Shown here in pieces: positions 10,492 through 57,111 of a DNA stretch of 64,000 bases. The notes beneath the pieces were generated by a model, which ran no database searches, was not told the origin of the DNA, and saw nothing but the letters and a program-made list of their open reading frames with translations. How positions within the stretch are numbered: position 1 is the first letter of the stretch; each line of letters begins with the position of its first letter. The position numbers and the translations under genes were made by a program. This stretch comes from Acidimicrobiia bacterium (GTDB lineage Bacteria; Actinomycetota; Acidimicrobiia; Spongiisociales; Spongiisociaceae), in assembly GCA_022827785.1 (NCBI GenBank), contig JAJEIM010000042.1, forward strand, positions 2,924-66,923, written 5' to 3'.

Positions 10492-13113
10492 ATGCGAGCC
10501 AATGCCATCCGGCGCGCCTTCACCGACTTCTTCGCCGAGCGAGACCACGTAGTTCGTCCGTCCGCATCGTTGATTCCCACCGATCCCACGCTGCTGGTGA
10601 CCAACGCCGGCATGGTCCCGTTCAAGCCCTATTTCCTCGGGGAGGAGGAGCCCCCCTGGCCCCGAGCCGTCAGCGTCCAGAAGTGCGTTCGGACCGTCGA
10701 CATCGACATCATCGGTACCACTGCGCGCCATCTGACCATGTTCGAGATGCTCGGGAACTTCTCGTTCGGTGACTACTTCAAGGAACTGGCCATCCGCTAC
10801 GCCTTCGACTTCGTCACCGGGCCGCTCGGCCTGGATCCCGAACTGCTCTGGTACACGGTCTACGAGACCGACGACGAGGCCGAGGAGATCTGGATCGATT
10901 CGATCGGGGTTCCCCCCGCTCGGGTGCAGCGGGGCGGCAAGGACAACTTCTGGCAGATGGGCATTCCCGGCCCGTGCGGCCCGTGCTCGGAGATCTTCAT
11001 CGACCGGGGTCCGGCCTACGGGCATGACGGAGGCCCGATCGGTGGTGGCGAGGACCGGTTCGTGGAGCTGTGGAATCTGGTCTTCATGCAGAACATCCAG
11101 GACGAGCCCTATCACGTCGTCGGCGACATCCCCGCCAAGGGGATAGATACCGGTACCGGGCTGGAGCGCCTGGCGATGATCCTCCAGGGGGTCGACACCC
11201 TCTTCGAGGCCGACTGTGTCCATGACGTGCTGGCGGCTGCGTCGGGCGCCCTGGGCCGGACCTATGGCGAGGACGAACGGGTCGACGTGACGCTTCGCCT
11301 GCTCGCCGACCACGCCCGTGCCTCCACGTTCCTGATCGGCGACCGTGCCCTGCCCGGGAACGAGGGCCGGGGTTACGTGGTGAGACGCCTGATCCGCCGA
11401 GCGGTACGGCACGCCTGGCAACTGGGCAGCGAGAGCCTCATCATGCCCGGCCTGGCCGAGGTGACCGCCGACGTCATGGAGGATGCCTACCCCGAACTCA
11501 AAGCCAACCTCGACTTCATCCGGCACGTCTTCGAGCGGGAGGAGTCCCAGTTCCGGCGCACCCTCGCCACCGGTACCCAGATGCTGGACGAGGCACTGGA
11601 AGGTTCGGAAACGGATGAGGTCGTATCCGGTGCTCTGGCCTTCAAGCTGCACGACACGTACGGCTTTCCGATCGACCTCACGCGTGAGATCGTGGCCGAG
11701 CAACAGCGCGAGGTAGACCTGGACGGGTTCGAGGCCGAGATGGCCGCCCAGCGGACCCGGGCCAAGGCCGCCTGGAAGGGGGGAGCCGAGGCGGTCCGCG
11801 TCGAGTCCTACAAGCGCATCCTCGACACCGTCGGCCCCACCGAGTTCCTTGGTTACGTCAGGGACGATTCGCCTGCCCTCGTCCTCGCCATTCTCCGGGA
11901 GGGAGAGCTGGTGGAGAGGGCTGAGGCGGGTCAGGAGGTGGAGGTCTTCCTGGACAGCTCACCCTTCTACGCGGAGGCCGGCGGGCAGGTGGGCGATGTC
12001 GGCCTGATCGAGTCGGCGACCGGACGGATCGAGGTGGGCGACACGCAGGCGGCCGTGACCGGTTTGCACGGCCACCGAGGCAAGGTCGAAAGTGGGTTCG
12101 TCCAGACCGGGCAGGAGGTGGACGCTCGGATCGACAGCCCCCGGCGCGACCGCATCCGCAGGTCGCACACCGGCACCCACCTCCTCCATTGGGCGCTCCG
12201 GGAGGTGATAGGCGAGCATGCCAACCAGGCCGGTTCCCTGGTCCAGGACGGGCGCCTCCGTTTTGACTTCAGCCACTACACGGCGGTGCCTTCCGAAGAA
12301 CTCGGTGAGGTGGAGCAGCTGGTCAACCAGCGGGTGGTGGACAACCATCGGGTCGGGCTGCTCGAGACGTCCAAGGACGAAGCCGAGGCCATGGGGGCGC
12401 TGGCGTTCTTCGGCGACAAGTACGGTGAGCGTGTGCGGGTGGTCTCGGTGGGAGACTTCTCGGTCGAGTTCTGCGGGGGCACCCACGTGGGCAGTTCGGC
12501 GGAGATCGGGCCGCTGCTGGTCACCTCCGAATCCTCCATCGGGTCGAACGTTCGCCGGGTTGAGGCTCTGACCGGTATGGCCGCCTATGCCCATGCTCGG
12601 GAAGCGAGGGAGCGGTTGGCCGATGTAGGTCGCTTCCTAGGCATGTCGATGCCTGAAGTCCCGGCGGGCGTGCGCCGGCTCGCCGAGCGGGCCGACGCCA
12701 TCCAGAGCGAGTTGGATCAGCGCCGCCAGCAGGACAGGACAGCGGTCGCCGCCGACCTGGCGGGCGCGGCCCGGTGCACGGGTGATACCTCGTGGCTCGT
12801 GGCCGAACTCGACGATCACGCTCCGGTGGCGTTGCGCCAGGTCGGGGCGCAGGTCCGGGACCGGCTCGGGTCCGGTGTCGTGGTCCTGGGAAGCACGACG
12901 GGCGGCAAGGGGGCGCTGGTCGGCCTTGCGACCCGTGACCTGGTCGACCGGGGGGTCTCGGCGGCCGATCTCGTACTGGTGGGCGCCAAGCTTCTCGGCG
13001 GGGGAGGGAGTCGCGACCCCGAGTTATCACAGGCGGGCGGACCGAGAGGCGACAAGGTTGGCGAGGCGCTGGACGCGATTCGGGAGGCGGTGGCACGCCG
13101 TCTGAGTGCCTGA
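10492..13113 (+). CDS. alaS: Alanine--tRNA ligase
   Basis: 873 aa. N-terminus MRANAIRRAFTDFFAERDHVVRPSASLIP, FxGDYFK and the editing domain HTGTHLLHWALR. Confidence 0.95.
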   Translation: MRANAIRRAFTDFFAERDHVVRPSASLIPTDPTLLVTNAGMVPFKPYFLGEEEPPWPRAVSVQKCVRTVDIDIIGTTARHLTMFEMLGNFSFGDYFKELAIRYAFDFVTGPLGLDPELLWYTVYETDDEAEEIWIDSIGVPPARVQRGGKDNFWQMGIPGPCGPCSEIFIDRGPAYGHDGGPIGGGEDRFVELWNLVFMQNIQDEPYHVVGDIPAKGIDTGTGLERLAMILQGVDTLFEADCVHDVLAAASGALGRTYGEDERVDVTLRLLADHARASTFLIGDRALPGNEGRGYVVRRLIRRAVRHAWQLGSESLIMPGLAEVTADVMEDAYPELKANLDFIRHVFEREESQFRRTLATGTQMLDEALEGSETDEVVSGALAFKLHDTYGFPIDLTREIVAEQQREVDLDGFEAEMAAQRTRAKAAWKGGAEAVRVESYKRILDTVGPTEFLGYVRDDSPALVLAILREGELVERAEAGQEVEVFLDSSPFYAEAGGQVGDVGLIESATGRIEVGDTQAAVTGLHGHRGKVESGFVQTGQEVDARIDSPRRDRIRRSHTGTHLLHWALREVIGEHANQAGSLVQDGRLRFDFSHYTAVPSEELGEVEQLVNQRVVDNHRVGLLETSKDEAEAMGALAFFGDKYGERVRVVSVGDFSVEFCGGTHVGSSAEIGPLLVTSESSIGSNVRRVEALTGMAAYAHAREARERLADVGRFLGMSMPEVPAGVRRLAERADAIQSELDQRRQQDRTAVAADLAGAARCTGDTSWLVAELDDHAPVALRQVGAQVRDRLGSGVVVLGSTTGGKGALVGLATRDLVDRGVSAADLVLVGAKLLGGGGSRDPELSQAGGPRGDKVGEALDAIREAVARRLSA

Positions 13114-13556: not shown

Positions 13557-14680
13557 GCGCCTACCGGCGTCCGGATCGCCCGCCGGAGCGTCATACCGAC
13601 GGCGATGATCGGTGGCTGATCCGCGCCCGGGGCGGCATCACCGGCCTTCTGGTGGCGGCTGTCGTCACGTACGCCCTGGTGGTGGGGGGCGCCGGCCTGG
13701 GCAACTGGGTCAACAGGCTGGGCGGGCTCGGCGGAGGAGATGAGACCGTCGAGGTCGAGCCGGGTCGCACCGTGGTGGTGGAGATCCCGTCGGGGTCGAG
13801 TGCCCGCAGCATCGCCGGCATCCTCGTGAGCAACGGTGTGGTGCCCTCCGCCATCGAGTTCGAGTCATTGGTCCGGACCCGAGAGGCGGGCAGCCTCCTC
13901 AAGGCCGGCACCTACGAGTTGGTCACCGGAACCGACCTCGACGAGATCGTGGACCTTCTCATCGCGGGGCCGTCCCTCGATGTGTTCCGGGTGACGGTGG
14001 TCGAAGGACTCCGTCTCGGCGAGGTCCTGGAGGTGTTGGCCCTAGCCACCGGCGACTACACGGACGAGGACTTCACGGCTGCGCTCGCGAGCGGTGACGT
14101 CACCTCCTCCTACGTGCCCCAGGGTCTCGAGACAGGGGTATGGGAGGGGCTCTTCTTCCCGGCCACCTACGAGTTCTTCGGTGATGCAACCCCGTCCGAG
14201 ATGCTGCAACGGCTGGCGACCGAGATGGAGCGGCGCCTGGAGGGGTACGACTGGTCCACGGTCACCGCACGGGGCTTCTCGGTGTACGAAGGGCTGGTCA
14301 TGGCCTCGCTGGTGGAGGCCGAGGCCGGAACCGATGAGGACCGGCCCCTGATCGCCAGCGTTATCAACAACCGGCTGGAGCGGGGCATGCCGCTCCAGAT
14401 CGACGCCACGGTCCTCTACGCCCTGGGGGACCGGGGCCGGTCGCCCACGCTCGATGACCTCGAGTTCGAGTCTCCCTACAACACCTACCGGATCTCCGGG
14501 CTCCCGCCGACGCCGATCGGCGCGTCGGGCGCCAAGTCCATCGAAGCGGTCATCGAGCCGGCAGAGACCGACTACCTCTATTACGTTCTCACGTCGGAGG
14601 ACGGATCCCACTCCTTCTTCGTTGAATACGACGACTTCCTGGTGGCCAAGCAGCAGGCGGACGCTCTGGGGATCGGTTGA
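13553..14680 (+). CDS. mltG: Endolytic murein transglycosylase MltG (YceG family)
   Basis: N-terminal TM segment then a YceG-like domain (...LQIDATVLYALG...YNTYRISGLPPTPI). Start chosen at the ATG overlapping the ruvX stop, not the long upstream ORF extension from 13106. Confidence 0.85.
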   Translation: MSAYRRPDRPPERHTDGDDRWLIRARGGITGLLVAAVVTYALVVGGAGLGNWVNRLGGLGGGDETVEVEPGRTVVVEIPSGSSARSIAGILVSNGVVPSAIEFESLVRTREAGSLLKAGTYELVTGTDLDEIVDLLIAGPSLDVFRVTVVEGLRLGEVLEVLALATGDYTDEDFTAALASGDVTSSYVPQGLETGVWEGLFFPATYEFFGDATPSEMLQRLATEMERRLEGYDWSTVTARGFSVYEGLVMASLVEAEAGTDEDRPLIASVINNRLERGMPLQIDATVLYALGDRGRSPTLDDLEFESPYNTYRISGLPPTPIGASGAKSIEAVIEPAETDYLYYVLTSEDGSHSFFVEYDDFLVAKQQADALGIG

Positions 14681-15492
14681 TCCGGATGGCCTTCCTGCAT
14701 CTGGCGGTCCTCGGCGATCCGGTGGCCCATTCGCTCTCGCCGGTCATCCACGCGGCCGCCCTGGAGTTCGCGGGACTCGAGGGCGAGTACACCCGGCGCA
14801 GGGTTGATGGACAGGGCATGGGGCGGGCTGCCGCCGATCTGCGGTCCGGACGCCTGACCGGCGCCAACGTGACCATGCCCCACAAGGCGCTGGCCGCAGA
14901 GTTGGCCGACCGGCGCTCGGAAGCGGTGGTCCGGTCCGGCGGCGCCAACACCCTGTGGATGGAGGAGGGCCGGCTACACGCCGACTCGACCGATCCTGAC
15001 GGAGTGCGGTTCGCCTGGCAGCACGCCCGGCTCCCCGACGAAGCTCCGGTGCTGCTGCTGGGTGCGGGCGCGGCCGCCGCCGCGGCCCTCCTGGCACTGA
15101 GCGATCGTGACGTCCGGGTGGCGGCGCGGCGGCCGGAAGCAGCCCACGACCTGGTAGCCCGCGTCGGCGCCAGGGCGGCGGTCGCGCCGTGGGGGCGGCC
15201 GGTGGCGGGGGCGGTGCTGGTCAATGCCACCCCGCTGGGCATGGGTGGTGAAGACCTCCCGGCCGCCGTGCTGGAGCAGGCGGGGGGTTTGCTGGAACTG
15301 GCCTACGGCCACGGGCAGACCCCGGCAGAGATGGCGCTGCGGGCTCGGAACCTGCCAGTGGCCTCCGGGGAGCTGATGCTGGTAGGCCAGGGAGCGGCCT
15401 CCTTCGCCATCTGGACCGGCGTGGAGGTACCTCCGACCGTCATGCTGGAGGCGCTCGCCGGACACCGGGATCAACCCACAGCTCGCCCCTAG
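14677..15492 (+). CDS. aroE: Shikimate dehydrogenase
   Basis: LAVLGDPVAHSLSPVIHAAALEFAGL N-terminus typical of AroE. Overlaps the mltG stop. Confidence 0.85.
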   Translation: MIRMAFLHLAVLGDPVAHSLSPVIHAAALEFAGLEGEYTRRRVDGQGMGRAAADLRSGRLTGANVTMPHKALAAELADRRSEAVVRSGGANTLWMEEGRLHADSTDPDGVRFAWQHARLPDEAPVLLLGAGAAAAAALLALSDRDVRVAARRPEAAHDLVARVGARAAVAPWGRPVAGAVLVNATPLGMGGEDLPAAVLEQAGGLLELAYGHGQTPAEMALRARNLPVASGELMLVGQGAASFAIWTGVEVPPTVMLEALAGHRDQPTARP

Positions 15493-15602
15493 TGTCCCGG
15501 ATCGTTGGTTCGTCGGGTTCCAAGGCTTCCTGAACGAGGCACTTGACCGATCCGGATCGATCTTGATTCTCAGGCCTGTGACGTTGTCCGGCGACAAGGG
15601 GG

Positions 15603-15624
15603 TTGAATGTGTCACATCCGCGTT
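15603..15624 (+). promoter_or_regulatory. Candidate sigma-70-like promoter (TTGAAT -35, TATAGG -10-like) in a lower-GC intergenic patch
   Basis: TTGAAT-(15 nt)-TATAGG, read directly. Flanked by the inverted hexamers TGTGAC/GTCACA. Confidence 0.3.
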
Positions 15625-15837
15625 ATAGGTTGTTGGATTACCGCAATTGCCAAGCGGTTCGGCACCGACGTCGACCGGACCTCCGGAGGGATCAAATCGT
15701 TCGAGGTGGCCCCGTGGAGGGCATAGCGGACCGCGTCTCGAACCCAGGTGGTGGCGGTGGAGGAGGGCCCGCCGGGTCGGGTTTGGCGTGGCGATTTTCG
15801 CGTCATCTTTCCGATGCAGGACACAAGGAGCATGCTG

Positions 15838-49371: not shown

Positions 49372-49563
49372 CCTGCGCTCCGATCCGTGTCCTTGCTCAA
49401 GGGACTGTCGAAGCCCGCGCCGATGATGCCATGGTCCTGTCACAACCGTAAGGCTGATCCGTCGATCCTTCCTGGCGCCATGGCGGATCGGCTGGTAAAA
49501 GTCCCCACCGTGCGGGAGAAAAGTCTGTTTTCCACATGCAAGGGCCAAAGCAAATCATAAGTT

Positions 49564-50742: not shown

Positions 50743-50860
50743 CGCGCGAGCTGACCGGATCGGGGGTATGCAGATGGCCCGCTGGGGAGGGACGTGTTCT
50801 CTCGGTTTTCGCGTTCTTGATGCCCGGGTATGGGCGACGAACTGCTGAATCAGCGCCCTC

Positions 50861-51949
50861 TTACAGCGGCTTGCGGGCCAGGAAACAATACAGCGGTGTG
50901 AAGATCCCGGCCCTGCCACCCGCGACATATGCCCTGGCGGTCCGATCCATCAGCCTCACGACGTCCGCGGTGCCTTCCGGAAATATCTTCACCAACTCGG
51001 CCAGCCTGAGTCCCCCGATCATCGCCTTCCGGCCCAATGGGACCCTGTACAGGGTGCCGCCCGGCGTGCCGCGCCGGGTCTCCATGGGCCGATACCAGGG
51101 AACGGGGTGGCTCGGACTGTTCTGCGCTACGGCCCGATCCTTCCCTTCGAGGACCTCGAATCCCGCTTCTTCGAGCGCCCGGTTCACCTCGCCCGTGGTG
51201 GCGATTCCGTCGAGCGCGATGCCGTGCATCAGCTCATGCTCGATGGCTCGGTGCCGGTCGTCGTCGGGATCGAACCTGTCCGTCAAGCACATCTCCTGGC
51301 CCCAGAAGAGAGCTCCGGGCTTGAGAACCCGGTGGATCTCCGCGAACGCGCTCACCTTGTCCGGCGCATGGCACGTCGATTCGATGGCGTAGCCGCGGTC
51401 GAATGTGTCGTCCGCGACGGCGCTCATGTCCATGAAGCTGCAGGCAAGGTAGTCGACCACGTGGTCGAGACCCGCCTCGGCATTCAACGACTTCGCCTTG
51501 TCCAATTGGAGATCGTTGTTGTTGACGCCTACGACCCGGACACCACCCTCCCGAACGACACGGCGCATCGGGCCGCCGATCCCGCAACCGACGTCGATCA
51601 CGGTCATGCCCTCGCGCAATTCCAGCTTGTCGATCATCAGTCGCTGGTGCCTGATCTGCGATTCTTCCAGGCTCTCCTCGGGCGACAGTGGCGCGAAGTG
51701 CAGGGACTCGCTCCAACCGAACACCATGAACTCCCCGCAAAGGTCGTAGTAGTCCCTCACGGTTTTGGCGTGGTCGTAGGCTGTTGCGCCGGTTCCCGTG
51801 CGAATTGCCCGGTCGGTCCATCCGTTGAAGTGGCGCACGCGACCGGCGACGTCCGTCCCACGGTACGTCGCCTTGAGCCCGGTGGCTAGCTCGCGCAGAC
51901 CCATGAACCCTGGGACATCAACAGCGACGGGGTGTCTTCTCGTGTCCAT
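50861..51949 (-). CDS. Sterol 24-C-methyltransferase (ERG6/SMT)-like SAM-dependent methyltransferase
   Basis: SMT region I YYDLCGEFMVFGWSESLHF. SAM motif VIDVGCGIGGPMR. GVNNNDLQLDKAK and YAIESTCHAPD match ERG6-family signatures closely (ERG6: GLNNNDYQI..AK, YAIEATCHAP). Internal ATG start at 51949. Confidence 0.85.
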   Translation of the reverse strand: MDTRRHPVAVDVPGFMGLRELATGLKATYRGTDVAGRVRHFNGWTDRAIRTGTGATAYDHAKTVRDYYDLCGEFMVFGWSESLHFAPLSPEESLEESQIRHQRLMIDKLELREGMTVIDVGCGIGGPMRRVVREGGVRVVGVNNNDLQLDKAKSLNAEAGLDHVVDYLACSFMDMSAVADDTFDRGYAIESTCHAPDKVSAFAEIHRVLKPGALFWGQEMCLTDRFDPDDDRHRAIEHELMHGIALDGIATTGEVNRALEEAGFEVLEGKDRAVAQNSPSHPVPWYRPMETRRGTPGGTLYRVPLGRKAMIGGLRLAELVKIFPEGTADVVRLMDRTARAYVAGGRAGIFTPLYCFLARKPL

Positions 51950-52109
51950 TCTCCGCGCACCAGAAAATACTACAGGGAGAGAGAGGCGATCATGGCTACG
52001 GCGGCAGGATGCATCCGAGAGGGATCCTGCCCACCCGTCGAATCGGTCTAGATCCGTCCGGTTCGGCGCCACGGCCAGTACCGGGCCACACTCTCGAGTG
52101 GATCGCCTC

Positions 52110-54137
52110 CTACACCGGCAGTTCGTGCCGCTGCGCGGCGATGACGAACTTCAGCTTGTTGTTCACCGACGAAGATGGGAACGGGCTGATCTTCAGCTTG
52201 TACCTGGCGGGTGAGATCTCGAGGGTGAAATGGTGTACGAGCATCAGCAAATGGATCGCCATTTGAAGTGACGTCCACCGGGAGCCCAGGCATGTGTGGG
52301 TACCCAGACCGTACGGCGCAAATGAGGATCCGACGTGTTCCCTGCGCGGCGCTAGATAGCGACCGATATCAAACGAGAAGGGATCGGGGAAGACTTCCTC
52401 CATGTAGTGTGTGGCCGTTTGGGCAATCACGACCCGGGACCCCTGCGGGAGTTCGTATCCGTCAACTGTGCACGTGTTCATCACGTTTCGATAGGATGCC
52501 GGCACGATCGGATAGACACGCATGCACTCCATGATGAACCGGCGTGTGACGTCTATCCCAGGTCCGGTGATCTCATCACGATCGGGATCCCCGTTGGCGA
52601 ACAAGGCATCGGCCTCGCCCTGGATCTTCTCGTAGAACTCGGGCTGTGACACCATCGCGTAGGTGATCAAGCCAAGCTGGTCACCCACATACATGCTTGC
52701 GATCAACGGCGCCGAGAGCACGAACGGCAGATTCGACTCCGGGAGGAACTGCCGGTCGCTCGTATGCATGCTCAGAAGGTCATCGGCAAGATCGCGAGGG
52801 CACCCTGCCCGCTGGGCGGGCGTGTGGACGCTCTGGACTCGTTCCACAACCTCTCCGACCAGCTTCGCCCGGCGCTTCATGGCAGGAGTACGCAGCATGA
52901 ACTTGGGCATGTTCCTGACGACATGGGTCTGAAGGGCTCGTTCCTTGAACTTGTGCAGGTCATCGACGAGATCCTGGGAATCGATACTGACGGTGAGCGG
53001 CGACATTGTTGCGTTGACCAGGCGCCTGCACATCGCCTTCGCGGGAAGCACATCTCCGACAGACCAGGCTGCCATGTGGTTCCGGGCATTGGAGTAGACC
53101 TCATCCAGCTGAGCTTCCAGCCTCGCGCGTGAATAGGCCGGCTGCATGGACTTGCGATACCGGAAATGATCACCACCGTCGAGGGTAGGCAATAACCCCG
53201 ATCCTCCGTATACCTTCTCGAAGTCCTCCAGATAATCCTTGGCCCTCAGATACATGCGCCCGTGCCGATGCACCCAGTGGTTCATTTCTGGTCCGGCGAG
53301 AAAGATCATCGGGTTGGCGAAGGGTGGACGAACCTGGAACACGGGACCATATTCTTGCGCGAGCTCTGCAAATAGTGCAGGAATATTACCTTGACGAAGG
53401 TGTCGACTGCCCAGCAGATGGCGAAGCGGCGCAACCGGAATCGGCTTAGCGAAAGCGGAGGGTCTGAACAAGGACCCAGCCAGGTTGTCGCTAACTGCTG
53501 CGGCGATGGACCTGCCGATCAGGTCCATCTTGCCGATGAATTCAACACGCCTTTCCGACTCTTCATCAAGGTCAAATATGAAGCGCAAGACATCACATGT
53601 ATTGATGAGACAGATGATAATGATATCTCTAGGGTCCGGAATCTCGTTGGCGAAGATCGCTCGACCGAGGCGCGTCTTGACGAAGTCTACAGCAGTACCT
53701 TCCCCAGATCTGGCATACGTGTCCTTCTGACATCCGCCCCGGGCCAACGACCAGAAGTCACCGTCGTGGTGCTGCAAGATCTTCAGGTCGACCAATCGAT
53801 CAAGGGTTAAGTCGATAATCGATTCTGCACGGGGAGCGAGCCGTTCGATCCAGTACTGGGCGTTCCGCTGAACCGGCTCTGCGGCGATCTTCTCGAGAAT
53901 AGGATCCAGGGCAGGATCGCCTGTTTCTGTTCGATCCAGAAGGATCAAGGAATCCATATCCGTGTCGATACGAGATAGCAGCGACAGCTCTCCCAACACG
54001 GCGCCGATAACGGCACAGTTCAGATCCCACCCGGGAACCTGCCGGAAGTAGCCACTCTCCTCGTTGAGGAGCGTGAGGACGAACTCGTCGAGCAAACTGA
54101 GCGTCTGACTGGTCGCACTGCTTGCGGTAAGAGTCAT
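52110..54137 (-). CDS. Cytochrome P450 with N-terminal GPP34/GOLPH3-like domain (fusion, 675 aa)
   Basis: C-terminal P450 has EXXR (ECMRVYP) and heme-thiolate loop FAPYGLGTHTCLGSRW. N-terminal about 200 aa match the GPP34 family (LLDEFVLTLLNEESGYF..VPGWDLNCAVIGAVLGELSLLSRI ... DPRDIIIICLINTCDVLRFIF). Lower GC than the flanks. Confidence 0.85.
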   Translation of the reverse strand: MTLTASSATSQTLSLLDEFVLTLLNEESGYFRQVPGWDLNCAVIGAVLGELSLLSRIDTDMDSLILLDRTETGDPALDPILEKIAAEPVQRNAQYWIERLAPRAESIIDLTLDRLVDLKILQHHDGDFWSLARGGCQKDTYARSGEGTAVDFVKTRLGRAIFANEIPDPRDIIIICLINTCDVLRFIFDLDEESERRVEFIGKMDLIGRSIAAAVSDNLAGSLFRPSAFAKPIPVAPLRHLLGSRHLRQGNIPALFAELAQEYGPVFQVRPPFANPMIFLAGPEMNHWVHRHGRMYLRAKDYLEDFEKVYGGSGLLPTLDGGDHFRYRKSMQPAYSRARLEAQLDEVYSNARNHMAAWSVGDVLPAKAMCRRLVNATMSPLTVSIDSQDLVDDLHKFKERALQTHVVRNMPKFMLRTPAMKRRAKLVGEVVERVQSVHTPAQRAGCPRDLADDLLSMHTSDRQFLPESNLPFVLSAPLIASMYVGDQLGLITYAMVSQPEFYEKIQGEADALFANGDPDRDEITGPGIDVTRRFIMECMRVYPIVPASYRNVMNTCTVDGYELPQGSRVVIAQTATHYMEEVFPDPFSFDIGRYLAPRREHVGSSFAPYGLGTHTCLGSRWTSLQMAIHLLMLVHHFTLEISPARYKLKISPFPSSSVNNKLKFVIAAQRHELPV

Positions 54138-54301: not shown

Positions 54302-55072
54302 ATGGCTCAACTACAACTCCGTCCGCTAGGTGTCGGCGAGATCGTCGACGCCACATTCACCGTCTACCGGCGCCGCTTCGGCCCGATGTTCGCCATCGCG
54401 CTGATGCTCGTGTTCATCCCGTTCCTCATCAGCCTGGTCGGTGGCTGCAGCCTCGACGCGAGCGGCACGACCACATGTACGTCTCCCATCGGCTGGCTCG
54501 CGTACATCGCAGGCTCGATCGGCACCCTCGTGGCGGGCACGGCTGCCGCCCTGGTGGCGGCCGAAGCCTATGCAGGTGTCCCGTCCGACTGGCGGCGAGC
54601 GACGAGGATCGGGCTTCGTAGAACCCTGGCGATCATCGGGGCGACGATCGTGGCCGGGGTGCTGATCGCCATCGGATTCGTGCTCGTGATCGTCCCGGGT
54701 ATCTTCCTGGCCGTGTCCCTCGCGGTGGTCTGGCAGGCTCTGATCATCGAAGGCGCTGGTCCGATGGAGAGCATCAAGCGGTCGTGGCGTCTGGTGGCCG
54801 GCGAGCGCTGGAGGGTGTTCGGGGCCGGCTTGCTCGTCATAATCATCGCGATCATCGTCTTCGGGGTTGCCTCGGCGGTGATCTGGCTCATCCTCTCGGC
54901 CGGCCTGGGAGTGAGCGGAGATACGGGCGGTTACCTCGTCCAGCAGGTAGCCACCCTGCTGTCAGTCCCGCTGAGCGCCGCGGTAGGTACGGTCATCTAT
55001 CTCGATCTGCGGGTGCGCAAGGAGTCGCTCGGCACGGCCGAACTCGCCGCCGCTCTGTCCGAACGGGGCTGA
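54302..55072 (+). CDS. Hypothetical polytopic membrane protein
   Basis: 256 aa, multiple TM helices. N-terminal GEIVDATFTVYRRRF resembles GPDPase-membrane/DUF-type families. Weak. Confidence 0.45.
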   Translation: MAQLQLRPLGVGEIVDATFTVYRRRFGPMFAIALMLVFIPFLISLVGGCSLDASGTTTCTSPIGWLAYIAGSIGTLVAGTAAALVAAEAYAGVPSDWRRATRIGLRRTLAIIGATIVAGVLIAIGFVLVIVPGIFLAVSLAVVWQALIIEGAGPMESIKRSWRLVAGERWRVFGAGLLVIIIAIIVFGVASAVIWLILSAGLGVSGDTGGYLVQQVATLLSVPLSAAVGTVIYLDLRVRKESLGTAELAAALSERG

Positions 55073-55161: not shown

Positions 55162-55238
55162 GGCCCCGTCGTCCAGCCGGCCTAGGACGCTGGCCTTTCA
55201 AGCCAGAAACGCGGGTTCGAATCCCGTCGGGGCCACCA
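55162..55238 (+). tRNA. tRNA-Glu (anticodon TTC), CCA encoded
   Basis: Manual fold. Acceptor GGCCCCG/CGGGGCC, D-stem GTCC/GGAC, anticodon stem CTGGC/GCCAG, loop CTTTCAA, T-loop TTCGAAT. Confidence 0.85.
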
Positions 55239-56545: not shown

Positions 56546-56617
56546 TCGGGAGTGGTGTAATCGGCAGCACGACAGGTTCTGGCCCTGTTAGTAGGGGTTC
56601 GAGTCCTCTCTCCCGAG
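56546..56617 (+). tRNA. tRNA-Gln (anticodon CTG)
   Basis: Manual fold. U1-A72 acceptor TCGGGAG/CTCCCGA, D-stem GTGT/GCAC, anticodon stem ACAGG/CCTGT, loop TTCTGGC, T-arm AGGGG-TTCGAGT-CCTCT, discriminator G. Confidence 0.8.
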
Positions 56618-56644
56618 CGGTTGGTATCATTCGCCACACGCAGT

Positions 56645-56717
56645 GGCCCCGTCGTCTAGGGGCCTAGGACACCGCCCTCTCAAGGCGGAGACGCCAGTTC
56701 AAATCTGGTCGGGGCTG
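56645..56717 (+). tRNA. tRNA-Glu (anticodon CTC)
   Basis: Manual fold. Acceptor GGCCCCG/CGGGGCT (G1-U72), anticodon stem CCGCC/GGCGG, loop CTCTCAA, T-loop TTCAAAT. 27 nt after tRNA-Gln. Confidence 0.8.
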
Positions 56718-57111
56718 CGATAGAACGACCCGGTCGGACCCATCACCGTGTGAAGGGTTCCGGTCGGGTCATTCCTTTCGCTGTCTCGGACGGCTCTTCG
56801 CAAACGAGCGGGTCGATATGTGTCCGACCGAGAGCCTCGCTCCCGAAAATCCGGTGCTTCGCATCGGGCCCCGCCCCCACCACCACCCATCCTGTTGGAG
56901 CGTGGTCGGCCATGCCCGGCTGGATGCCGGGGATCGGCTGTCGCTCCATGAAGCCTTCCATGTTCCCTCGGTCCGGCCGGTCCGATCGTCATCGGCCGGT
57001 TAGGTGCTTGGCGATGGGCACCTTATAGCGGGGGTGTGACGATTCCGGCCACGATCTGCGAGAACGCGAAAGAACGGTAAGGAAGCGCCTCCGCGATCGG
57101 TGAGGGTCGTG

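Follow-up and report, generated by a model that had tools for sequence, protein, structure and literature searches.

A GOLPH3-fold domain fused to a cytochrome P450 in an Acidimicrobiia genome: conserved gene linkage and a candidate role in lipid tailoring

Why should a bacterial cytochrome P450 carry at its N-terminus a domain with the fold of GOLPH3? The question is raised by an open reading frame (ORF) of 675 codons, without internal stop, in a 64,000-nucleotide stretch of DNA (hereafter the window) from an Acidimicrobiia bacterium (GenBank assembly GCA_022827785.1, contig JAJEIM010000042.1, positions 2,924 to 66,923). According to Pfam, the predicted protein consists of a GPP34 domain (amino acids (aa) 15-215) joined by a linker of 29 aa to a complete P450 domain (aa 245-661). 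The same architecture has been published under the name GPP34_L by Ferreira et al. (2025, Microbiome 13:4, PMC11706023), in whose survey 656 of the 663 long GPP34 proteins are of the GPP34+cytP450 type, forming a monophyletic group present only in sponge symbionts of many phyla. The architecture is thus known since 2025, and the original prediction made from the window was wrong in taking it for an undescribed one. Having GPP34 N-terminal to a cytochrome P450 in one polypeptide, the window protein belongs to GPP34_L: the two-domain architecture is identical, its closest relatives come from metagenome-assembled genomes of the same sponge-symbiont kind, and there is no structural difference.

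What differs is the interpretation. Ferreira et al. (PMC11706023) proposed that GPP34 is secreted, binds phosphatidylinositol 4-phosphate (PI4P) and blocks phagosome maturation. They also reported rare GPP34+Rieske and GPP34+PotA (ABC ATPase) fusions, as well as P450 genes within five genes of many short stand-alone GPP34 genes. The words "sterol" and "methyltransferase" never occur in the text of that paper, which gives flanking genes for the short form only, and no other paper on bacterial GPP34 in symbionts was found in the literature searched. Four points appear to be new with respect to the searchable literature: the linkage of the fusion gene to genes for a sterol methyltransferase (SMT), a Rieske oxygenase and resistance-nodulation-division (RND) transporters, the non-conserved PI4P pocket, an atypical I-helix, and a recent SMT insertion in the window. 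From the material presented below we infer a substrate class, a cellular location, a role for the GPP34 domain and a type of reaction chemistry.

The fusion protein and its GPP34 domain

The original prediction of an in-frame fusion between GPP34 and a complete P450 holds. More than 2,100 relatives were found in the protein database, with both Pfam domains in all 240 clusters listed (32-100% identity, nearly all 655-700 aa), and 80 genome loci, spread over several phyla, encode the same single ORF, which excludes a frameshift or an error of assembly. That such an error has merged two distinct genes, an idea for which we found nothing in favour, has a negligible probability: it is refuted by a single ORF of about 675 aa that recurs in several phyla, across hundreds of assemblies made independently, and by a proline of the linker (P234) that is invariant in the alignments. 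An exhaustive search of representatives recovered full-length fusions down to 24-26% identity. The closest relatives are from Acidimicrobiia, Ca. Poriferisocius, Ca. Aldehydirespirator and Chloroflexota, including the sponge bins RHO, IRC, COS, APA and SB06xx.

Among 115 close homologues the GPP34 part (77% mean identity) is at least as conserved as the P450 part (73%), the linker being the least conserved region (54%). The GPP34 domain lies directly upstream of a conserved Pro-rich segment, KPIPVAPL, which opens the P450 part. The AlphaFold model of the full-length protein (pLDDT 86.8, pTM 0.80) suggests a defined two-domain arrangement; low pLDDT values are limited to aa 1-10, 135-146 and 223-225, the last being the only dip within the linker. 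Several of the loci collected (L006, L008, L017, L020, L031, L036, L037, L041, L139 and L143) carry a pair of GPP34-P450 genes, adjacent or at most 2 kb apart, whose products have 62-78% identity to the window protein, and locus L079 has a second, approximately 30%-identical paralogue beside another transporter gene of the MMPL type.

The assignment of the N-terminal domain, also part of the original prediction, is confirmed by three approaches. The match to Pfam GPP34 (PF05719; E-value = 6.7e-26) scores 92 bits against a cut-off of 29.1, covers profile positions 1-198 of 201 and includes the conserved motifs RIDTD (aa 56-60) and IPDPRD (aa 166-171). A single-sequence phmmer search of this part against the PDB returned nothing relevant; with a profile of 26 N-terminal sequences, human GOLPH3 (3KN1; E-value = 1e-15) and yeast Vps74 (E-value = 1e-12) were matched over nearly the whole domain. 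Finally, the AlphaFold model of aa 1-235 (pLDDT 83, pTM 0.81) matches in Foldseek only GOLPH3 and Vps74 (TM 0.70 and 0.67, E-value = 9e-9), the next matches being noise. A beta-hairpin is predicted at aa 121-131, so that the model shows the helical core and projecting beta-hairpin of the GOLPH3/Vps74 fold.

In GOLPH3 the PI4P pocket is made of W81, R90, R171 and R174, and pairwise mutation of these residues abolishes both PI4P binding and Golgi targeting (Wood et al. 2009, PMC2806290). We mapped the pocket by aligning GOLPH3 to the family profile, at about 19% identity, so that the result depends on the alignment. By this mapping all four residues are replaced in the window protein: W81 by P35 (proline in 115 of 120 close homologues), R90 by I44 (valine or isoleucine in 113 of 120), R171 by E105 (glutamate or aspartate in all 120) and R174 by I108 (isoleucine or valine in all 120). 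In a wider set of 94 representatives, the R90 position is never basic; 83 of them have a residue at the positions of R171 and R174, the former being aspartate or glutamate in 61 and the latter arginine in 29. The window domain thus shares with GOLPH3 and Vps74 the fold and a clear profile-level homology, and differs in the replaced pocket, in lacking the 10-residue insertion that precedes R171 in GOLPH3, and in being fused to an enzyme.

These residues bear directly on the published proposal of a secreted effector, according to which the GPP34 protein enters the sponge cell, binds phagosomal PI4P and blocks maturation, with the P450 as an accessory. In its favour, GPP34_L is reported only from sponge symbionts and not from their free-living sister lineages (PMC11706023), and the homology of the domain with GOLPH3 and Vps74, which are PI4P effectors, is genuine. 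An eukaryote-like P450 lacking the acid-alcohol pair (see below) could, moreover, allow activity without bacterial redox partners. By the mapping above, however, all four pocket residues of GOLPH3 are replaced, two of the three arginines being changed to hydrophobic residues and R171 to an acidic one. There is also no N-terminal signal sequence: the extension preceding GPP34, with a median length of 5 aa and at most 15 aa in 95% of the 289 proteins measured, is too short for a Sec or Tat signal, although secretion without such a signal is possible. No recurrent secretion-system genes are found nearby, the neighbours being metabolic enzymes and lipid transporters, and a haem enzyme that normally needs electron donors would be an odd payload. 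We therefore consider the effector model unlikely.

An atypical P450 domain

The P450 part matches Pfam p450 (PF00067; E-value = 8.2e-35) over profile positions 17-455 of 462. The EXXR motif and the cysteine loop that had been read in the original prediction are both present (ECMR, aa 537-540; FAPYGLGTHTCLG, aa 606-618), together with the meander, and C616, E537 and R540 are invariant in the alignments, as expected for a haem-thiolate P450. The best sequence matches in the PDB, which are weak, are taxadiene 5-alpha-hydroxylase (CYP725A4; E-value = 2e-23), CYP120, CYP51s, CYP17 and CYP90B1. The top structural match is Methylococcus CYP51 (19% identity; TM 0.82 when normalised to the target), with BM3-type domains coming next, and identities to solved structures in structural alignments are 14-20%. 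A named stand-alone relative, a Herpetosiphon "CYP120", is 32% identical. As CYP families are usually delimited at 40% identity, these values place the domain in a separate CYP family of eukaryote-like type.

A comparison with CYP51, CYP125 and CYP142, suggested along with the original prediction, yielded no membership. Identities to CYP51s are 18-19% in structural alignments and no CYP51 model is among the NCBIfam matches; neither CYP125 nor CYP142, of which several structures are present in the PDB, is named among the 60 listed of 158 PDB sequence matches. A redox-partner fusion of the BM3 type was rejected as well. P450 BM3 and the Methylococcus CYP51-ferredoxin are likewise bacterial P450s fused to a second domain, but the added domain of the window protein is N-terminal, matches GPP34 only, and is not an electron-transfer module (no flavin, ferredoxin or other iron-sulfur family in Pfam). 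The window P450 shares the canonical cysteine loop, EXXR and meander with CYP725A4, CYP120, CYP51 and CYP90B1; unlike the eukaryote-type enzymes, it has a GOLPH3-fold module in place of an N-terminal transmembrane helix.

The I-helix departs from the canonical pattern. The acid-alcohol pair of the (A/G)Gx(D/E)T motif, which P450s that activate O2 as monooxygenases typically have, is not present; the window protein reads IASMY-VG, with a one-residue deletion. Relatives of at least 38% identity have, with rare exceptions, IAS(M/I/V)Y-(V/L)G or IAGHY-LGS, with the same deletion, and Y483 is conserved in at least 90% of 85 sequences (alignment A3). Subfamilies at about 30-35% identity, including those linked to sulfotransferases, keep AGLDT. 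Loss of the pair is known from substrate-assisted or peroxide-dependent P450s such as EryF, CYP152, CYP74 and CYP8A.

Gene neighbourhood in the window and in other genomes

Downstream of the fusion gene, on the same strand and after a gap of 160-205 bp depending on the start codon, lies an SMT homologue (Table 1), whose 347-aa start is taken from the gene call on a near-identical contig (L081). It matches the Pfam families CMAS, Methyltransf_11 (E-value = 4.6e-16) and Sterol_MT_C (E-value = 4.5e-15; 55.9 bits against a cut-off of 21.7), a SAM-methyltransferase domain with a C-terminal sterol-methyltransferase domain, from which SMT activity is predicted. Convergent with it is a gene for a Rieske non-haem-iron oxygenase with both Rieske and KshA_C Pfam domains, the CxH...CxxH and DxxHxxxxH motifs, and as its best PDB match the 3-ketosteroid 9-alpha-hydroxylase KshA (E-value = 1.5e-24); its score with the SdmA equivalog model is only 28 bits, where the cut-off is 600.

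Table 1. Features of the window discussed in the text, with their positions
Feature	Position	Strand	Basis
GPP34-P450 fusion gene, 675 aa, GPP34_L member	52110..54137	-	ORF list, Pfam, homologues
GPP34/GOLPH3-fold domain, aa 15-215	53493..54095	-	Pfam, profile against PDB, AlphaFold and Foldseek
Inter-domain linker, aa 216-244	53406..53492	-	Between the two Pfam envelopes
Pro-rich segment KPIPVAPL, aa 231-238	53424-53447	-	Inside the linker, opens the P450 part
Cytochrome P450 domain, aa 245-661	52155..53405	-	Pfam, PDB matches, motifs
Non-canonical I-helix IASMYVG, aa 479-485	52683..52703	-	Alignments A1 and A3
EXXR motif, E537-C-M-R540	52518-52529	-	Motif reading
Meander FDIGRY, aa 589-594	52356-52373	-	Motif reading
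Haem cysteine loop FAPYGLGTHTCLG, aa 606-618	52284-52322	-	Motif reading; Cys616 at 52290-52292
SMT homologue, 347 aa from M57 of the ORF	50861..51904	-	Pfam; longest ORF to 52072
KshA-like Rieske non-haem-iron oxygenase, 348 aa	49696..50742	+	Pfam Rieske and KshA_C; ORF from 49564
SMT-bearing insertion, 1,367 bp	50744..52110	.	blastn of window against L002 and L001
tRNA-Glu(ttc)	55162-55238		Rfam
tRNA-Gln(ctg)	56546-56618		Rfam
tRNA-Glu(ctc)	56645-56718		Rfam

The SMT gene lies in an insertion that sits exactly between the stop codons of the fusion and Rieske genes and is missing from the two closest relatives (L001 and L002, 86% protein identity to the window). The two stops are only 23 bp apart in L002 (12028-12050); in L001 the Rieske gene is reduced to about 700 bp (12115-12808) and is probably a pseudogene. 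The outer synteny with both loci is kept, comprising a predicted membrane protein (window 54302-55072, with a weak DUF975 match below the Pfam cut-off), a GCV_T gene, an aminotransferase and a tRNA synthetase. The window SMT is closest to copies from Chloroflexota (74-79% identity) and only 57-59% identical to other copies from Acidimicrobiia, which, together with its absence from the closest relatives, suggests a recent acquisition of this segment as a module.

Several other features of the window were recorded. No second GPP34 gene and no related P450 occurs in the 64 kb. A scan of 49.3-54.5 kb for promoter and terminator consensus sequences gave counts at or below the shuffled expectation and is uninformative on operon structure; no att-like direct or inverted repeats flank the cassette in the 48.8-55.4 kb searched. 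Rfam detected only three tRNAs, located 1-2.6 kb from the fusion gene start, and a classical tRNA-integrated island was rejected, the nearby tRNA-Glu being on the wrong side. The near-identical contig (ENA ERZ23491428, SAMN22237343) encodes an identical fusion protein, its DNA being 99.5-99.6% identical to the window, and contains just past the Rieske gene about 978 extra bp (14608-15682) that are not in the window (49435-49531), with a 283-aa ORF without Pfam match.

The linkage seen in the window recurs in other genomes. ORFs of the 80 loci were clustered and checked by tblastn, and neighbours were counted on the 60 loci with full flanks of 10 kb on both sides. At least one partner gene is present in 58 of them, from five or more phyla. 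The KshA-like Rieske oxygenase is found in 53 of the 60 (median distance 2.0 kb), an RND transporter of about 830 aa of the MMPL/HAE3 type in 42 (132 bp), a FAD-dependent protein of the amine-oxidase family (PF01593) in 37 (1.3 kb), the SMT in 21 (48 bp), and an AcrB-type RND pump in 7 (215 bp), with a HlyD-family adaptor where annotated. The MMPL-type transporter matches the Pfam Sterol-sensing and Patched families above their cut-offs, with weak NCBIfam matches to HpnN, BstA and Patched. Gene order is variable (AmOx-Rieske-fusion-SMT-MMPL in Chloroflexota, fusion-MMPL-AmOx-Rieske in many Acidimicrobiia), and the outer flanking housekeeping genes are lineage-specific. A 45%-identical paralogue on a 6-Mb contig (P0339) has the same kinds of partners (Rieske with KshA_C, RND, Amino_oxidase). 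The AcrB-type pump takes the place of the MMPL-type transporter next to or near the fusion gene at L044-L046, L057, L065, L068, L077 and L084, all from diderm lineages (Latescibacterota, Longimicrobiales, Binatia and the unclassified 6-Mb contig of L084).

The linkage also holds in the reverse direction. A search of metagenome contigs, an independent collection, with the window SMT returned 65 loci; a GPP34-P450 lies within 10 kb in 23-24 of the 36 that are at least 12 kb long. Many of the contig prefixes indicate sponges: A. aerophoba (JGIcombinedJ30088, Ga0209021), P. ficiformis (LXNJ01) and S. foetidus (LXNI01). For SMT homologues of sponge symbionts, methylation of sterols has been demonstrated in vitro (Brown et al. 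2023, Nat Commun 14:1859, PMC10070321). The window SMT shares with them the defining Methyltransf_11 and Sterol_MT_C domains and has relatives in the same three sponge metagenomes; it differs in that its clade travels with GPP34-P450, Rieske and RND genes. P450, Rieske and GPP34 do not occur in Brown et al. or its supplements, and none of the contigs tested there is among our 65 SMT loci.

Several lines of sequence evidence point to horizontal movement of the cassette. The fusion protein keeps an identity of 65-68% in most of the listed loci from other phyla (Chloroflexota, Latescibacterota, Longimicrobiales, Binatia). At locus L050, the fusion (67%), SMT (66%) and Rieske (75%) proteins are far closer to those of the window than a housekeeping tRNA synthetase (44%). 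The fusion gene has a G+C content of 0.54-0.60 versus 0.63-0.69 in its flanks. Pairwise identities of the fusion protein correlate with those of the Rieske protein (r = 0.66) and of the MMPL transporter (r = 0.81), values reached in none of 999 Mantel permutations; shared vertical descent could also be a source of this correlation.

A predicted sterol-tailoring role and its alternatives

We propose, with slightly more confidence than doubt, that the fusion protein is a cytoplasmic, membrane-docked oxygenase belonging to a mobile cassette for the tailoring of sterols or other triterpenoids. The enzyme would remain in the bacterial cell and work on the cytoplasmic side of the membrane. Its cassette would move horizontally and serve in lipid tailoring, with partners that depend on the lineage: the KshA-like Rieske oxygenase, the FAD oxidoreductase of the amine-oxidase family and the SMT. 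As substrates of the enzyme we envisage sterols or polycyclic triterpenoids close to them, which would most likely be obtained from the host sponge or be carried by the RND transporter encoded nearby. Oxidosqualene cyclase, squalene epoxidase and CYP51 are not among the annotated recurrent neighbour clusters, no direct search for sterol-synthesis genes having been made; given the lack of such recurrent genes in the cassette, the substrates probably come from the host or by import. The nearest named relatives of the P450 (CYP725A4, CYP120, CYP51, CYP90B1 and CYP17), which act on isoprenoids or sterols, support this reading.

In the proposed scheme, the GPP34 domain would replace the N-terminal membrane anchor of microsomal P450s, in which the anchor is likewise followed by a Pro-rich hinge. 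It may dock the enzyme on the membrane or present a lipid to it; since the pocket residues are not conserved, it would do so without using the PI4P pocket of GOLPH3. The suggestion in the original prediction that GPP34 tethers the P450 to the membrane or hands over a lipid is thus plausible, given the gene context and the position of the domain before the Pro-rich segment. The known fusions of GPP34 to a Rieske protein, the class of the second oxygenase of the cassette, and to an ABC ATPase fit such a docking or lipid-presenting role.

A number of observations weigh against this proposal. Ordinary monooxygenase chemistry is not to be assumed, the acid-alcohol pair being gone. The replacement of the PI4P residues is read from the alignment at about 19% identity mentioned above, in which a tryptophan, W37, stands only two residues after the W81 column, and the conserved R56, R114, R156, R170 and R197 could build a different site for anionic lipids. 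The linkage itself is incomplete: the SMT is present at roughly one in three fusion loci only, the cassette shows no gene for a redox partner, and the 64 kb of the window lack both an RND (MMPL-type) transporter and an amine-oxidase homologue, SMT and Rieske being the only partners there. A 49%-identical paralogue (P0362) has no recognisable partner, and two paralogues at about 33% adjoin sulfotransferases instead. Every NCBIfam match of the Rieske and MMPL/HAE3 partners is far below its cut-off, and Rieske enzymes of the KshA_C type, like MMPL/HAE3 transporters, also act on non-steroid substrates.

Some of these points favour a role in the handling of other lipids or xenobiotics, with the oxidation and export of further hydrophobic sponge metabolites such as terpenoids, hopanoid-like lipids or brominated compounds, the link to SMT being secondary. 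RND transporters, MMPL/HAE3 or AcrB, are the closest and among the most frequent neighbours of the fusion gene, the family-level matches of the partners are all below curated cut-offs, and the distant subfamilies with sulfotransferases would conform to a general pattern of hydroxylation followed by conjugation. On the other hand, Sterol_MT_C, KshA_C and the sterol-sensing/Patched-type region are three independent pointers to sterol-like substrates, and the in vitro activity of the sponge-symbiont SMT homologues (PMC10070321) also speaks for sterols; a non-sterol role accordingly seems improbable to us. The subfamily at about 33% identity stands beside two or three sulfotransferase genes (L082 6241-11983, L085 10001-14843), in one case also near an adenosine phosphosulfate (APS) kinase gene, which hints at hydroxylation and then sulfation; a connection with the sulfated sterols of sponges is speculation.

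The KshA-like partner raises another alternative, sterol catabolism, in which the P450 and the Rieske oxygenase would initiate the breakdown of host sterols for carbon and the RND transporter would import them. The best solved relatives of the Rieske protein are indeed ring-opening KshA hydroxylases, and the loci from Ca. Poriferisocius and its relatives among the Acidimicrobiia have genes for short-chain dehydrogenases/reductases (SDR), flavin monooxygenases and CoA-transferases nearby. An enrichment of genes for steroid degradation has been reported for sponge metagenomes (Holert et al. 2018, PMC5790920). Yet the degraders were found in that study only in Actinobacteria and Proteobacteria, while Chloroflexota and Latescibacterota commonly carry the cassette. 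The SMT, directly adjacent in 21 of the 60 loci, is a biosynthetic tailoring enzyme, and the P450 does not resemble the cholesterol side-chain oxidases, no CYP125 or CYP142 being among the 60 PDB matches listed. A catabolic role is thus, in our estimate, as improbable as the effector model.

Returning to sterol tailoring, a more specific form of the proposal can be put forward, tentatively and with more doubt than belief: GPP34-P450 would be the signature enzyme of a mobile cross-phylum cassette for tailoring host sterols, with the GOLPH3 fold serving as a sterol or membrane module and the P450 following a non-standard chemistry. The symbionts would take up and remodel sterols of the host, the RND protein acting as sterol transporter and an SMT being sometimes present. 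The P450, devoid of the acid-alcohol pair, would catalyse, for example, a desaturation or a peroxide rearrangement, and the products would feed into the unconventional sponge sterols that are used as animal biomarkers.

The fusion is not a new kind of object, but its analysis yields a concrete and testable alternative function for a family whose only published functional proposal, a PI4P-binding effector against phagocytosis, fits neither the pocket residues nor the gene neighbourhood. If sterol tailoring is true, no other symbiosis-specific lipid-modifying system of sponge microbiomes would be as widespread as this family, which numbers hundreds of genes in many phyla, and the bacterial GOLPH3 fold would gain a biochemical role. 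It would also, as a distinct clade of putative SMTs travels with the fusion gene, bear on the dispute whether 24-isopropyl and 26-methyl steranes derive from early animals or from their bacteria.

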